Virus record (IMG/VR): IMGVR_UViG_2778261418_000019
Coordinates: 1 to 22,248 of that record
Length of the DNA: 22,248 bases
From: a virus
Lineage: Duplodnaviria > Heunggongvirae > Uroviricota > Caudoviricetes
Reading direction: 5' to 3' (one strand)
In this document: in pieces, positions 334 to 3,940 of the stretch
Layout of the letters: every line of letters begins with the position of its first letter
How positions within the stretch are numbered: position 1 is the first letter of the stretch
Position numbers and translations under genes: made by a program
The notes under the pieces: generated by a model
Told to the model about the DNA's origin: nothing
Database searches by the model: none
What the model saw: only the letters and a program-made list of their open reading frames with translations

Positions 334-516
334 TTATACGGCTTTTTCTACATGGTACGCGGCGAAGTGAAAGGAAGTAAATGTACCCGACGCTGCGTTA
401 TTCTTATGTACGGTACGGTATTTGTTATCCTCACCTTTTACTACTGCCCCCATATATACATCGTTAACCATGATATCAGTGATGTTACCGCGTTCTAAGT
501 AAGTTACTGTATTCAT
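334..516 (-). CDS. hypothetical small protein (60 aa), the only convincing minus-strand gene
   Basis: ATG at 516 is preceded by AAGGGA with a 7-nt spacer. The track start at 549 is a TTG with no RBS. The gene has its own promoter-like element (557-584) and ends at the 303-323 hairpin. No motif recognised. Confidence 0.5.
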   Translation of the reverse strand: MNTVTYLERGNITDIMVNDVYMGAVVKGEDNKYRTVHKNNAASGTFTSFHFAAYHVEKAV

Positions 517-556
517 TATATATCCCTTCGTAGTAGTGTTTTGCTTCAATAAAGAC

Positions 557-584
557 AGTATACACTACCGTTAGTTACTATCAA
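557..584 (-). promoter_or_regulatory. sigma70-like promoter for the minus-strand gene
   Basis: Read on the minus strand: TTGATA (584-579), 16-nt spacer, TATACT (562-557). This lies about 40 nt upstream of the ATG at 516. Confidence 0.45.
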
Positions 585-617
585 GTGTTTTCTACTAATA
601 AAATATTTTAGTAACTA
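572..617. promoter_or_regulatory. 9-bp inverted repeat pair, candidate operator half-sites between divergent promoters
   Basis: TAGTTACTA (572-580) and TAGTAACTA (609-617) are exact reverse complements 28 nt apart. The left arm overlaps the minus -35. The right arm ends 3 nt before the plus -35. Confidence 0.35.
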
Positions 618-620
618 GTG

Positions 621-649
621 TTGACGTTAGATACTAATGATCCTAGTAT
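621..649 (+). promoter_or_regulatory. sigma70-like promoter for the rightward small-gene cluster
   Basis: TTGACG (621-626), 17-nt spacer, TAGTAT (644-649). The spacer and -10 contain the inverted repeat GATACTA (630-636) / TAGTATC (644-650). Confidence 0.4.
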
Positions 650-678
650 CAGTGGTGTCAATACAACGAGGACACAAC

Positions 679-765
679 ATGACGTTCACTATCACTAAAG
701 AGCATGTACTATTTGTAGTCATCATAACCTTGTTACTAATCGTAGGGAGTATCGAAAATGTCTAA
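679..765 (+). CDS. 28-aa hydrophobic mini-protein (MTFTITKEHVLFVVIITLLLIVGSIENV)
   Basis: Not in the ORF track because it is under 60 aa. ATG at 679 has GAGGA 5 nt upstream. One predicted TM helix. The 3' end overlaps the next ATG at 758. Confidence 0.35.
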   Translation: MTFTITKEHVLFVVIITLLLIVGSIENV

Positions 766-928
766 GGGTGTATCTACTGATTTGATCATTAAGGCACATG
801 ATTTAGGATTCAAGATTAACGAGATTGATAATCGTGTAACGGGAATGTTTCATATAGTAATTAGTTCCCGTCATAATGAGCGTGAATTATTCAGTATGTT
901 TCTTATGTCTGGTGGCTTGTTCCATTAG
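758..928 (+). CDS. hypothetical 56-aa protein ending at an in-frame TAG; the frame stays open a further 40 codons to TAA 1049-1051
   Basis: ATG at 758 follows GGGAG with an 8-nt spacer. The stop is TAG at 926-928. The same frame has no stop and no start codon until 1051, 4 nt before a 16-bp hairpin. Confidence 0.4.
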   Translation: MSKGVSTDLIIKAHDLGFKINEIDNRVTGMFHIVISSRHNERELFSMFLMSGGLFH

Positions 929-1055
929 GAAAAGAACATCAATTTACCTAAGAGTGTAACCGATAAGATCACTATTGCCCGATTCGATGGTGAACGTGCT
1001 TTCACTTCATTACTAGAAGTAGTATCCGAAGAAATTACTAACGTACATTAATCAA

Positions 1056-1106: not shown

Positions 1107-1208
1107 ATGAAAAAATTAACCTTTACTTACCTTGCGGCTGCAAATTTCTTTTTCTTCATTGCTGGGATCTTTACATGCGTATTAGTTGTATTGCTGGTGG
1201 ACTTATAA
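1107..1208 (+). CDS. 33-aa hydrophobic mini-protein (MKKLTFTYLAAANFFFFIAGIFTCVLVVLLVDL)
   Basis: Read directly from the sequence. KK followed by a long hydrophobic stretch looks like a single-pass membrane peptide. Only a weak GGA lies upstream. It overlaps the alternative frame of the 1088-1372 ORF. Confidence 0.3.
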   Translation: MKKLTFTYLAAANFFFFIAGIFTCVLVVLLVDL

Positions 1209-1372
1209 CCGAAGTTTTCGACGATCACGACCGAAAGGTAGGGGCGGTCACTATGTCTAAGCATCCCCTACACATCAATAAGCCTTTTAGTGATGGTAAG
1301 ACGTGGCACACTACCTATAACGAAGCACTATTGAACTTACTAACTAGAAAACGCGTGAACATTAAGCTATGA
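1175..1372 (+). CDS. hypothetical protein (65 aa from ATG 1175; alternative start ATG 1253 gives 39 aa)
   Basis: The track ORF 1088-1372 begins with a GTG inside the hairpin arm, which is unlikely. Its 3' end is coupled to the next gene by an ATGA overlap at 1369-1372. Confidence 0.4.
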   Translation: MRISCIAGGLITEVFDDHDRKVGAVTMSKHPLHINKPFSDGKTWHTTYNEALLNLLTRKRVNIKL

Positions 1373-1590
1373 ATGATCTTAATGATCTAAACGTGCTCTA
1401 TATAGATACAGTACGAAAACTTACCGAAGAAGATCTACTACGTGATTTTGGTCTTACAAGTGAGATGATAAACACTTTGAAGGAGATCCCACTTGCAAAT
1501 ATAGGTAAACTAACCGAATGTACTCAGTTACTGTTAAAATCAAACGAGGCTGTACTATGGGAAGCATTAAAAGCATTACCGCAAAGATGA
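1369..1590 (+). CDS. 73-aa helical protein, possibly FlhD-like (weak, from memory)
   Basis: ATGA overlap with the upstream gene. RDFGLTSEMINTLKEIPLANIGKLTECTQLLLKSN lines up without gaps with E. coli FlhD [35 protein letters not shown], as I recall that sequence. Confidence 0.6.
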   Translation: MNDLNDLNVLYIDTVRKLTEEDLLRDFGLTSEMINTLKEIPLANIGKLTECTQLLLKSNEAVLWEALKALPQR

Positions 1591-2247: not shown

Positions 2248-2280
2248 AATAGCTACTACACAGATAAAGTAGTAGCTATT
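2248..2280 (+). terminator. perfect 12-bp stem-loop after the 1557-2240 gene (no U-tract)
   Basis: AATAGCTACTAC (2248-2259), loop ACAGATAAA, GTAGTAGCTATT (2269-2280). Confidence 0.4.
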
Positions 2281-2348: not shown

Positions 2349-2729
2349 ATGAAGCATCTCTTTGCCCTAGCTGTACTTGCTACTGCTACAATCACTACTG
2401 GCTGCACTACTACAATGCCTGCATTTATGAATGAAGCTGTAGTAGGTGATATTAACGGTCGTACACTAGTATTATTCCCCGTAAATGGTGGCAAAGAGTA
2501 TCGCCCACAATTCAGTAGTGATTGTCAGCCAATGCTATTAGGTGAAGAACGCCCATCTACTGGTAACTGTATTATTGCCGCCGCCCGCCTTACAAACATT
2601 CATAGCTACACCGAACATAAAGCCCACGGCCCCCACAAAAACACCACTAAGATAGTTGATCGTTCAAATAATTACGGTACAGAATTTGAGTTATCGAAAC
2701 CAACTAATTATATAGGCGATAATCTGTGA
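2349..2729 (+). CDS. putative lipoprotein (126 aa)
   Basis: AAGGA RBS. The N-terminus MKHLFALAVLATATITTGC is a signal peptide ending in a lipobox-like TTGC. Confidence 0.7.
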   Translation: MKHLFALAVLATATITTGCTTTMPAFMNEAVVGDINGRTLVLFPVNGGKEYRPQFSSDCQPMLLGEERPSTGNCIIAAARLTNIHSYTEHKAHGPHKNTTKIVDRSNNYGTEFELSKPTNYIGDNL

Positions 2730-2815
2730 TGAAGAAAACAATATTTGCCGTACTTTTAGTTATGGGGACTGCATATTACTATGATATAATAAAATATATT
2801 AATCCCACTTATTAA
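2729..2815 (+). CDS. 28-aa hydrophobic mini-protein (MKKTIFAVLLVMGTAYYYDIIKYINPTY)
   Basis: Its ATG overlaps the lipoprotein stop (TGATG at 2727-2731), suggesting translational coupling. The N-terminus is signal- or TM-like. Confidence 0.35.
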   Translation: MKKTIFAVLLVMGTAYYYDIIKYINPTY

Positions 2816-2908
2816 ATTGCAGTCGCCGTAATCAAAAACACTGTCATTATCTGGCATCAATAATGCCATTGATTCTGATAAAGTAGATAATCCCGAATGG
2901 ATGAATTT

Positions 2909-3289
2909 ATGAAAAAGATTGTACTGTCTGCATTACTGTTAGTAGCCCCTTCGGTACTGGCAGTAAATGTAATACTCCCTGATGATGGTCTGTATCGTTG
3001 CGGTGTTGAATCGTGGGAACAGGTAGGAAAGCGAGTAGTAAAGACTGGTTATTATGGTATGACTGGTTATGTGAGTATTGATAACCGTGCTGTTAGTGTG
3101 AAGTTTAGGGATGTGAATATTTCATTCAGCCCTGTTTCAAAACTTAAAAGCGGTCGCCTGATGGCCTATGCCGTAGATACTGACCAGTACGATATTATTA
3201 TTAGTGCAATCAATGGTAAAACACAGTATATGGTCAGCAATGAGAATAATCCCGTATTTTTGAACTTCTCCAATTGTATTATTGAATAA
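2909..3289 (+). CDS. secreted protein, paralog A (126 aa from ATG 2909; the track start 2897 is also possible)
   Basis: MKKIVLSALLLVAPSVLA|VN is a type I signal peptide. Cysteines sit near both ends of the mature protein (LYRC ... FSNC). Paralogous to 3299-3685. Confidence 0.7.
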   Translation: MKKIVLSALLLVAPSVLAVNVILPDDGLYRCGVESWEQVGKRVVKTGYYGMTGYVSIDNRAVSVKFRDVNISFSPVSKLKSGRLMAYAVDTDQYDIIISAINGKTQYMVSNENNPVFLNFSNCIIE

Positions 3290-3298
3290 GGAATAGAA

Positions 3299-3685
3299 AT
3301 GAAAAAGGTTATCGTATCTGCATTACTGTTAGTAGCTCCTTCGGTACTGGCTAACACTCACTCTCTACCAGAGCAGGGATTGTATCAATGTGATGTGAAA
3401 GTAGTTGAAATGCTGGGTGATACTCCAGTAGAAAAATCTTCTTATTCTGGTGCAGGTCACGCTAAAGTTAATAGTGATGGTTTTATCCTTAACTTCGGTG
3501 CAATGACTCACGCCACCGGACCAATAGAATCTAATGATTCAATGACAATGGCTTATGATAATGATAGGCAGCGATACTTCCTTGCAACAATGGGTAGTAA
3601 AGAGCAAAACGATATTACTTTTATCTTCTCATTGAGATCTGATACTCGTAATTACTACTTTCAAAACTGCGTTAAAATAAAATAA
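3299..3685 (+). CDS. secreted protein, paralog B (128 aa)
   Basis: AAGGAA RBS. MKKVIVSALLLVAPSVLA|NT is a signal peptide. Cysteines at LYQC ... FQNC. MAY and NC positions are shared with paralog A. Confidence 0.75.
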   Translation: MKKVIVSALLLVAPSVLANTHSLPEQGLYQCDVKVVEMLGDTPVEKSSYSGAGHAKVNSDGFILNFGAMTHATGPIESNDSMTMAYDNDRQRYFLATMGSKEQNDITFIFSLRSDTRNYYFQNCVKIK

Positions 3686-3912: not shown

Positions 3913-3940
3913 AGCCCACTAATAAAAGTGGGCTTTTTTA
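3913..3940 (+). terminator. rho-independent terminator
   Basis: AGCCCAC (3913-3919), 8-nt loop, GTGGGCT (3928-3934), then TTTTTT. The stem sequence matches the hairpin at 303-323. Confidence 0.8.

Follow-up and report, generated by a model that had tools for sequence, protein, structure and literature searches.

Positions 517–678 of the 22,248-nucleotide stretch of viral DNA analysed here (the window) probably form the main control region of a prophage of Enterobacteriaceae, as is supported by back-to-back promoters of the sigma-70 type and by repeated palindromic sites which overlap them. The region separates a gene of 60 codons which is read leftward (g60) from an operon which is read rightward. 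The prophage element, about 33 kb in length, lies inside a split yegD gene in both of the Escherichia coli genomes which carry it. On the reading favoured here, an array of operators lies over the divergent promoters and would be read by a dimeric protein which is encoded by the element and is not the product of g60, whilst g60 would be an autonomous cassette; taken as a whole, this reading is evenly poised between being right and being wrong. Among relatives of the element, g60 is found within at least six types of spacer (designated below by the letters A to F, with B'), always leftward and divergent from the rightward operon.

Promoters and palindromic sites of the control region

The leftward promoter, PL, lies on the minus strand and consists of TTGATA (584–579) and TATACT (562–557) separated by 16 nt. 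It matches the consensus at 10 of 12 positions and was the top-scoring promoter-like site of the first 5 kb in a consensus scan; its transcript would start near position 550 (minus). The rightward promoter, PR, on the plus strand, consists of TTGACG (621–626) and TAGTAT (644–649) with a spacing of 17 nt, matches the consensus at 9 of 12 positions in the same scan, and would direct transcription from near position 656 (plus). Both promoters had been proposed in an earlier examination of the letters of this DNA (the sequence-only reading), and both were recovered. The TATACT of PL and the leader downstream of it recur in type E. Types B and B' keep the −35 and −10 hexamers of PR at the same distance of 17 nt, despite the fact that their spacer DNA is only about 70% identical to that of the window. 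The scan and the conservation in types B and B' thus provide, in silico, the divergent back-to-back promoters expected of a switch of the CI/Cro type. Consensus matches alone prove nothing, since the 18 promoter-like matches observed in the first 5 kb are no enrichment over the 19.2 expected from shuffled sequences. The PR spacer also contains a Dam site, GATC (638–641), which is conserved in types A, B and B' while neighbouring spacer bases vary.

A 9-bp inverted repeat with arms at 572–580 and 609–617, described previously as touching both −35 boxes, is better read as two copies of a self-palindromic 9-mer, TAGT-W-ACTA (a 4-1-4 arrangement), because TAGTTACTA and TAGTAACTA are each self-complementary around the central W. 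The first copy, site S1 (TAGTTACTA, 572–580), is a perfect palindrome in the PL spacer and does overlap the −35 box of PL, by 2 bp. The second, site S2 (TAGTAACTA, 609–617), is likewise perfect and stops 3 bp upstream of the −35 box of PR, so that only the leftward half of the earlier description stands. A third site, S3 (TAGATACTA, 628–636), agrees with the palindrome at 8 of 9 positions and is located directly past the −35 box of PR, in the PR spacer, 19 bp from S2. S1, S2 and S3 all fit a longer form, TTAG-N3-CTA. Between S1 and S2 lies S1' (TTTCTACTA, 589–597), which matches TAGCTACTA at 7 of 9 positions and is weak when considered alone; it matches in sequence a one-mismatch site of type E, in a comparison made by eye with types A and E unaligned.

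The repetition of the palindrome is unlikely to have arisen by chance. S1 and S2, 37 bp apart, are the only perfect copies of TAGT-W-ACTA in the 22,248 bp. When the 162-bp spacer is shuffled with its dinucleotide content preserved, about 7% of the shuffles contain a perfect inverted repeat of 9 bp; for the same 4-1-4 palindrome occurring twice, the shuffles give a P of about 0.010, and the symmetry first noted in the sequence is therefore beyond chance once it has been recast in this way. A role for the 9-bp repeat as an RNA hairpin was considered and rejected, since neither of the two predicted transcripts holds both arms.

Statistical evidence comes also from the element as a whole. The slightly relaxed motif TAGT-W-[A/G]-CTA is present in seven copies in the complete E. 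coli copy of the element, six of them within the 9.2% of the DNA which is intergenic. These six form three pairs, spaced 37, 20 and 20 bp: one in the control-region spacer (572/609), one between the 227-residue gene g227 and a lipoprotein gene (2250/2270), and one outside the window, where the copies, 20 bp apart, immediately precede a holin-like lysis gene. Between 0.13 and 0.15 intergenic copies are expected, and none of 3000 dinucleotide-keeping shuffles of the intergenic DNA reaches six (the maximum being three). The motif is enriched about 40-fold in the intergenic DNA of the whole element, with a single copy in coding DNA against 1.3 expected. The second pair of sites in the window (2248–2280) comprises TAGCTACTA at 2250 and TAGTAGCTA at 2270, which form a perfect 12-bp inverted repeat with the arms AATAGCTACTAC and GTAGTAGCTATT; a third TAGCTA is found within 2248–2300, and the repeat adjoins a TATAAT. 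A pair of sites or a cluster of TAGCTA words is also located 3' of the g227 homologue in types D and E. Through S1, S2 and S3, together with the intergenic enrichment, the region thus presents the several copies of a dyad operator overlapping both promoters which a switch of the CI/Cro type would possess.

Comparison of the relatives reveals different palindromes at similar positions. Types B and B' carry a perfect TAGTAACTA exactly at the position of S3. Type C has an unrelated spacer with a palindrome of its own, GTATNNATAC, of which one copy lies beside g60 and two lie over a rightward promoter; three of the five copies in 21.9 kb fall in the control spacer. Type E, from Enterobacter, contains two perfect copies of TAGTAGCTA 19 bp apart at the positions of S2 and S3, with partial copies elsewhere in the spacer, and it has the same inverted pair after its 227-residue homologue. 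Arrays of TAGCTA are present in type D and at locus L037, and type F has TACTAGTA three times. No operator motif is common to all of the g60-bearing types, and the spacer types have no k-mers in common beyond the chance level. What the compared spacers have in common is the layout, a single leftward site and two rightward ones; the palindromes themselves are type-specific. Since this is the pattern seen in heteroimmune relatives, the sites are treated here as probable protein-binding sites. The two E. coli copies (L016 and L018) have the same operator region, with one single-nucleotide polymorphism across 446–853.

A second symmetry had been noted in the sequence-only reading, GATACTA-N7-TAGTATC (630–650, with arms at 630–636 and 644–650), in which the right half of S3 is paired with the −10 hexamer of PR. 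This element does not withstand scrutiny. An inverted repeat of 7 bp is found in 63% of shuffles of the 162-bp spacer (P of about 0.63) and the pairing is therefore not beyond chance, and types B and B' keep only its inner ACTA/TAGT. The words TTGAC and GTCAA, said to flank it, are both present, albeit with GTCAA at 657–661 rather than 656–660 and with the pair non-concentric with the inner repeat (centres 641 and 640). All other features of that reading lie at the coordinates given for them.

The leftward 60-residue gene

g60 (334–516, minus strand) runs from an ATG at 516 to a stop codon at 334–336. This ATG is preferred as the start over an upstream TTG, which would give an open reading frame of 334–549, because all homologues begin at the ATG. 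A Shine-Dalgarno sequence, GAAGGGA (523–529, minus strand), precedes it by 6 nt. Behind the gene lies a bidirectional intrinsic terminator (303–323, both strands), with a stem of nine pairs followed by TTTTTTATT on the minus strand; it serves the leftward g60, for which the T-run is the better, and the upstream rightward gene (1–300), and it is found 3' of g60 in every type of relative examined. As had been claimed, g60 stands alone on its strand: across the span of the window, it is the sole leftward gene annotated in the near-identical E. coli copy, all others being rightward.

Thirty-six of the 60 positions of the protein are invariant across nine sequences. Synonymous and non-synonymous changes stand at 19:6 to 19:9 in comparisons with types B and B' and at about 20:16 with types C and D; by these counts g60 is a genuine coding gene under purifying selection. 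The predicted fold is a four-stranded beta-meander with a C-terminal helix, for which the best AlphaFold2 model has a pLDDT (predicted local distance difference test) score of 82 and the other four models score about 61–64. Comparison of the protein with Pfam, PHROGs, NCBIfam, PADLOC and PDB sequences, together with a fold search, matched no family, DNA-binding family or fold. An exhaustive profile search of 1.8 billion representatives returned just two further small relatives, and a search of genome contigs with a profile of the g60 alignment returned at least one weak locus (41% identity over 34 residues), which is probably spurious.

The window and L018 differ at about 17 positions within 327–445, which covers the terminator and the 3' half of g60, and at one position in the next 400 bp. 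To the left of 327, the sequence is wholly replaced in L018, which is without the 99-residue gene. The comparison places a recombination breakpoint inside g60.

The distribution and surroundings of g60 are those of an accessory gene. It is absent from the related elements L002–L004 and L009–L012. In relatives without it, the stretch from the left arm to the terminase genes contains leftward genes of other kinds, for an OLD nuclease, an 8xMP membrane protein or a DUF4238 protein. The OLD-family nuclease gene (PADLOC Old, E 1e-74) is leftward and just upstream of the small terminase gene in L002 (3914–5734) and L003 (2703–4523), which, with the leftward 8xMP and DUF4238 genes of other relatives, suggests that the element family has a slot for cargo or defence genes. 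A CI/Cro pair at the position of g60 in relatives was looked for and rejected, the leftward genes there being without helix-turn-helix (HTH) or S24 domains (no Pfam family, 8xMP, DUF4238 or OLD nuclease). Homologues of g60 with 43–59% identity occur in unrelated phages, where they are co-directional with their neighbours and each lie behind a near-consensus promoter of their own (TTGACT-17-TATATT, TTGACA-16-TATAAT or TAGACT-16-TATAAT); such promoters precede the homologues at L024 and L038–L040. In two unrelated phages the homologue has a terminator upstream and a terminator-like hairpin downstream, and is situated between the lysis genes and a DNA methyltransferase gene. The leader of the homologue, from promoter to start codon, forms a GC-rich hairpin in L024 (GAGGAGA...TCTCCTC) and in L040 (GGGGAGAGA...TCTCTCCCC), which may represent a conserved leader structure.

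Hendrix, Juhala and colleagues are said to have described the morons of lambdoid phages as autonomous units of promoter, open reading frame and terminator. g60 has a predicted sigma-70 promoter of its own upstream (10 of 12 positions) and an intrinsic terminator directly downstream, and this combination of a promoter-like element in front and a terminator behind is found in every context seen. Like a moron, it is patchy among related elements and appears as a stand-alone cassette in unrelated phages. Unlike the morons, it lies back-to-back with the main rightward promoter of the element, with an operator copy in its own promoter, and its base composition is not deviant (41% versus 39% GC). Judged by promoter, Shine-Dalgarno sequence, reading frame and terminator, g60 is probably an autonomous, moron-like cassette and thus a self-contained accessory gene.

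In a CI/Cro-type switch the leftward gene encodes a DNA-binding repressor of the HTH/S24 kind, the sequence of which co-varies with the operator type. With 60 residues, the g60 product is too short for an S24 domain, and it has no HTH match. Searches of the whole element with Pfam and PHROGs found neither an HTH repressor, CI-like or other, nor a replication protein, which bears out the earlier remark that none of the small proteins has an obvious HTH motif. Nor does g60 follow the operators. The g60 proteins of a type E locus (L066) and a type C locus (L005) are 88% identical and their operators are unrelated, two type E proteins are 86% identical and their operators are identical, and the type D protein is 98% identical to that of another type E locus (L065). 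With no tracking of operator type, no k-mers shared between the spacers beyond chance, absence from relatives and stand-alone cassettes in unrelated phages, g60 is unlikely to be an operator-reading repressor. The assignment of the 60-residue protein as a novel regulator is accordingly unsupported, and the evidence leans against it. The notion of a switch-like region in the sequence-only reading is supported as regards the divergent promoters overlapped by repeated dyad sites, and unsupported as regards the 60-residue protein as the repressor.

The rightward operon, candidate readers and the remainder of the element

The first gene of the PR operon, g28 (679–765, plus strand), encodes a membrane peptide of 28 residues. 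It is preceded by a GAGGA Shine-Dalgarno sequence (668–672), its 3' end overlaps the next start codon, and it is 82–100% conserved in types A, B and B', with related peptides in types E and F. The frame which follows, g97 (758–1051, plus strand), consists of 56 codons, an in-frame TAG (926–928) and 40 further codons. It is intact in the relatives L018 and L001, where the codon is TGG and encodes a conserved Trp57; the window therefore carries a W57* nonsense change, and the shortened form of 56 residues has been called in several independent assemblies. Scans for tRNA genes and Rfam families found nothing, so that the element holds no suppressor tRNA for this TAG. The AlphaFold2 model of the g97 product has an alpha-beta4-alpha-alpha topology (pLDDT 82). 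The 97-residue family has clear homologues in types A and E; types B and B' have a shorter relative of 76 residues, and type F has a distant one at 29% identity. The family co-occurs with the TAGTA[A/G]CTA types of operator. A CI/Cro-type switch would have a Cro-like first rightward product; here g97 comes second, after the 28-residue peptide, and follows the operator type, but it has no known DNA-binding fold and is truncated in the window.

Further downstream lie g65 (1175–1372, plus strand), which encodes a basic protein, and g73 (1369–1590, plus strand), the start of which it overlaps. g65 is taken to encode 65 residues, not 39 as first read, because homology extends upstream. The product of g73 is helical and weakly FlhD-like: the FlhD family of Pfam (PF05247) scores 15.2 bits, below the cut-off of 27, hhalign gives a probability of 20.5% over 31 columns, and a profile search of the PDB gives an E value of 0.68. 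Within the element family g65 and g73 are conserved wherever g60 occurs. The divergence of g73 tracks the operator type, with type C as the outlier at 27–36% identity and the type E pair at 90%. On this pattern, the reader of the sites would most likely be a product of the rightward operon, either the 97-residue family or the overlapping pair of 65- and 73-residue proteins.

Another candidate was a protein of 50 residues, elsewhere in the element, with a weak ribbon-helix-helix (RHH) resemblance (14.2 bits against Pfam RHH_1, with a cut-off of 20.5). RHH proteins such as omega of pSM19035 and MetJ read arrays of 7–8-bp boxes in several promoters, and the element similarly has short boxes in pairs or arrays at several promoter regions of one replicon, together with this weakly RHH-like protein. 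Unlike in those systems, the L016 and L018 proteins are only 49% identical and differ in their strand residues, whereas the operator regions of the two copies are identical; the strand residues moreover resemble those of elements with other operator types. The 50-residue protein is thus an unlikely reader and was rejected.

A hairpin or palindrome at 1055–1095, 3' of the 97-residue frame, has a perfect 17-bp stem with the arms ATTAACACTACTAGTAC and GTACTAGTAGTGTTAAT, lacks a T-run, and contains TACTAGTA, the word from which the operators of type F are built. The loop, of 7 nt, has opposite orientations in the window and L016 on the one hand and in L018 and L001 on the other, the two forms being reverse complements but for one mismatch, which amounts to a small hairpin-loop inversion. 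A 10-mer, TAGTAGTGTT, occurs both in this hairpin and in the g60 leader, and was judged to be at about chance level for 800 bp. The gene g227 (1557–2240) encodes 227 residues with no family match. Its homologues in E. coli, Enterobacter, Klebsiella, Cronobacter and Leclercia are all annotated as hypothetical, its N-terminal part resembles, by eye, an H-NS-type coiled coil, and elements of Cronobacter and Klebsiella have g227 without g60. Beyond it come a lipoprotein-like gene of 126 codons and then a paralogous pair encoding secreted proteins of 130 and 128 residues (about 32% identical), the three spanning 2349–3685 of the window, and a strong bidirectional terminator (3913–3934) marks the end of the rightward operon ahead of the terminase genes.

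The window is 99.3% identical to a copy of the element in the E. coli chromosome NZ_CM151386.1 and 95% identical to a copy in NZ_CM135810.1; these are the only two among 5426 complete E. coli genomes to carry it. In NZ_CM151386.1 the whole element, which splits yegD, occupies 1811455–1844594 (loci L016 and L017). Both E. coli copies begin with the gene for a large serine recombinase of 532 residues and end after a lysis cassette. Besides the RHH-like protein, Pfam and PHROGs recognise an HNH nuclease, a split methyltransferase, and head, tail and lysis genes. The split methyltransferase gene, which is of the S-adenosylmethionine-dependent type, lies upstream of the window, and in L016/L017 the head-tail joining genes are separated from the tail tube gene by a tail-fibre-like gene of 1244 codons. 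DNA searches of phage and plasmid collections found no close relative of the window, the element being absent from deposited phages, and no deposited phage protein is more than 37% identical to its terminase; a literature search on yegD prophages returned nothing relevant. Related elements are present in IMG/VR contigs and in assemblies of Enterobacter, Klebsiella and Cronobacter. The family is one of uncharacterised prophages of roughly 30 kb and low GC content in E. coli, Enterobacter and other Enterobacteriaceae.

A possible regulon and its alternatives

According to the favoured reading, a dimeric regulator encoded by the element would read the TAGT-W-ACTA sites over PL and PR. The same regulator would read the pairs before the lipoprotein cluster (2250/2270) and before the lysis genes, making three transcription units into one regulon, and a single protein would in this way couple the g60 cassette, the rightward operon, the lipoprotein cluster and the lysis genes. 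Since S1 lies in the PL spacer, centred at about −26 from the predicted start, its occupancy should block PL. S2 (about −43) and S3 (about −24) flank the −35 box of PR two helical turns apart, and their occupancy would set the activity of PR; as PR has a good −35 box, repression is the simplest reading. At the pair of sites before the lysis gene and at the rightward pair of type E no consensus sigma-70 promoter was found, which fits activator sites, and activation is possible at these two places. g60 would presumably be expressed from the resting prophage, under the control of the same sites.

The arrangement may be compared with two parts of the lambda control circuit. In the lambda-type immunity region PRM and PR, with OR1–OR3, are read by CI and Cro. 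As there, the promoters are back-to-back within about 100 bp, three to four dyad sites lie over both, one at the leftward promoter and two at the rightward, and the site sequences vary among relatives whilst the layout is kept, as in heteroimmunity. The differences are considerable. The palindromes here are of 9 bp and the lambda operators of 17 bp, the leftward gene shows no co-variation with the operators and is without an HTH or an S24 peptidase domain, a 28-residue membrane peptide is the first product on the rightward side, and the same sites recur before two other operons. At the lambda promoter PRE, activator sites bracket the −35 box, with CII reading 4-bp direct repeats 6 bp apart. 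S2 and S3 likewise flank a −35 box, and promoters which depend on an activator typically lack a consensus, as is the case at the lysis-gene pair and at the rightward pair of type E; in contrast to PRE, the sites are 9-bp palindromes 19–20 bp apart, and PR of the window already has a good −35 box (TTGACG).

Several points weigh against the favoured reading. Each of its functional steps is inferred, the transcription starts, the binding of protein, the direction of regulation and the identity of the reading protein all being drawn from sequence features, statistics, conservation and the pattern of co-variation. The P values for the motif are optimistic because the motif was defined after the region had been inspected; even so, the margin is large. 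Only one perfect site is kept in types B and B'. The g97 and g73 products are acidic and without a recognised DNA-binding domain, and their co-variation with the operators may reflect shared descent, since the genes are physically linked to them. The amber codon cuts g97 in the lineage of the window, so that g97, if it is the reader, may be defective here. One copy of the motif before the lysis gene persists in an element without g60, g65, g73 and g97, so that the reader could instead be supplied by the host or by the conserved core of the element. As for the cassette nature of g60, both flanks are mosaic in the relatives which lack it, so that the classic moron test of neighbour adjacency gives no verdict.

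The most direct alternative is that g60 encodes a new, non-HTH prophage repressor which binds S1–S3, represses PR and autoregulates PL. Among the genes of the window it alone runs leftward, diverging from an operon which leads toward the structural genes, and in types A, C and E its promoter contains one copy of the operator. The gene is unbroken even in a copy of the element which is decaying and has its terminase gene in fragments, its product has a conserved basic hairpin (K27–K38), and searches of the element revealed no HTH repressor. This proposal is nonetheless unlikely, given the independence of g60 from operator type, the lack of any k-mer common to the spacers beyond chance, a net charge of about zero (by hand count) with no DNA-binding fold, the relatives which lack the gene, and the co-directional homologues in other phages. 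g60 might instead act at the level of protein, as a small antagonist or partner of a module of g65 and g73, perhaps with g227, which would read the operators. Small protein antagonists are known to control the FlhD complex, and the weak FlhD resemblance of g73 is in keeping with such a role, as are the occurrence of g60 within the element family only where g65 is also present, its conservation while the operators change and its want of DNA-binding features. That resemblance is, however, below every threshold and no g73 is found near the g60 homologues of unrelated phages, and the chance that g60 is an antagonist of this kind seems slim.

Two further explanations were considered. There may be no coordination at all, with ordinary promoters abutting by chance and the repeats a by-product of AT-rich intergenic DNA rich in TAG and CTA. 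Promoter-like matches are indeed at background density, generic tests for inverted repeats are non-significant in all spacer types (P = 0.08, 0.92, 0.35, 0.085 and 0.16), and across the window there is an excess of copies with one mismatch to the motif (30 versus 14 expected), which hints at a word bias. Composition of this kind does not readily account for six copies where the 3000 intergenic shuffles never exceeded three, for their pairing in three separate intergenic regions at spacings of 19–20 bp, for the retention of the S3 position across about 30% sequence divergence, or for the repetition of the layout in type C with an unrelated palindrome; we hold this explanation to be quite improbable. 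Alternatively the array might be an iteron-type replication origin, or a partition or packaging site. In its favour, the short dyad repeats, three to four in number, recur at intervals of about 19 bp beside AT-rich DNA (598–610), and no replication module is identifiable in the element. Against this, the motif is paired in two other intergenic regions directly before genes, the control-region sites coincide precisely with promoter hexamers, and GC skew shows nothing at the sites, so that an origin or a partition or packaging site is very improbable.

A bolder form of the proposal is a switch without a classical HTH repressor, in which a new small regulator (the 97-residue family or the pair of 65- and 73-residue proteins) would recognise the type-specific palindromic operators and g60 would be either an antagonist at the protein level or a new kind of repressor. 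This is rather unlikely; if true, it would constitute an undescribed type of lysis–lysogeny control in prophages of Enterobacteriaceae.

The system is a prophage promoter–operator node of a familiar kind in an undescribed family of elements. Given a defined motif for the operators, the three regions which it would regulate and a handful of candidate readers, a set of hypothetical proteins becomes a small and testable regulatory problem. Should the reader not prove to be one of the orphan proteins, the region would be an ordinary promoter–operator region in a new phage. If it is one of them, the element family would provide a new family of DNA-binding proteins, together with orthogonal pairs of operators and regulators represented by types A, C, D, E and F.

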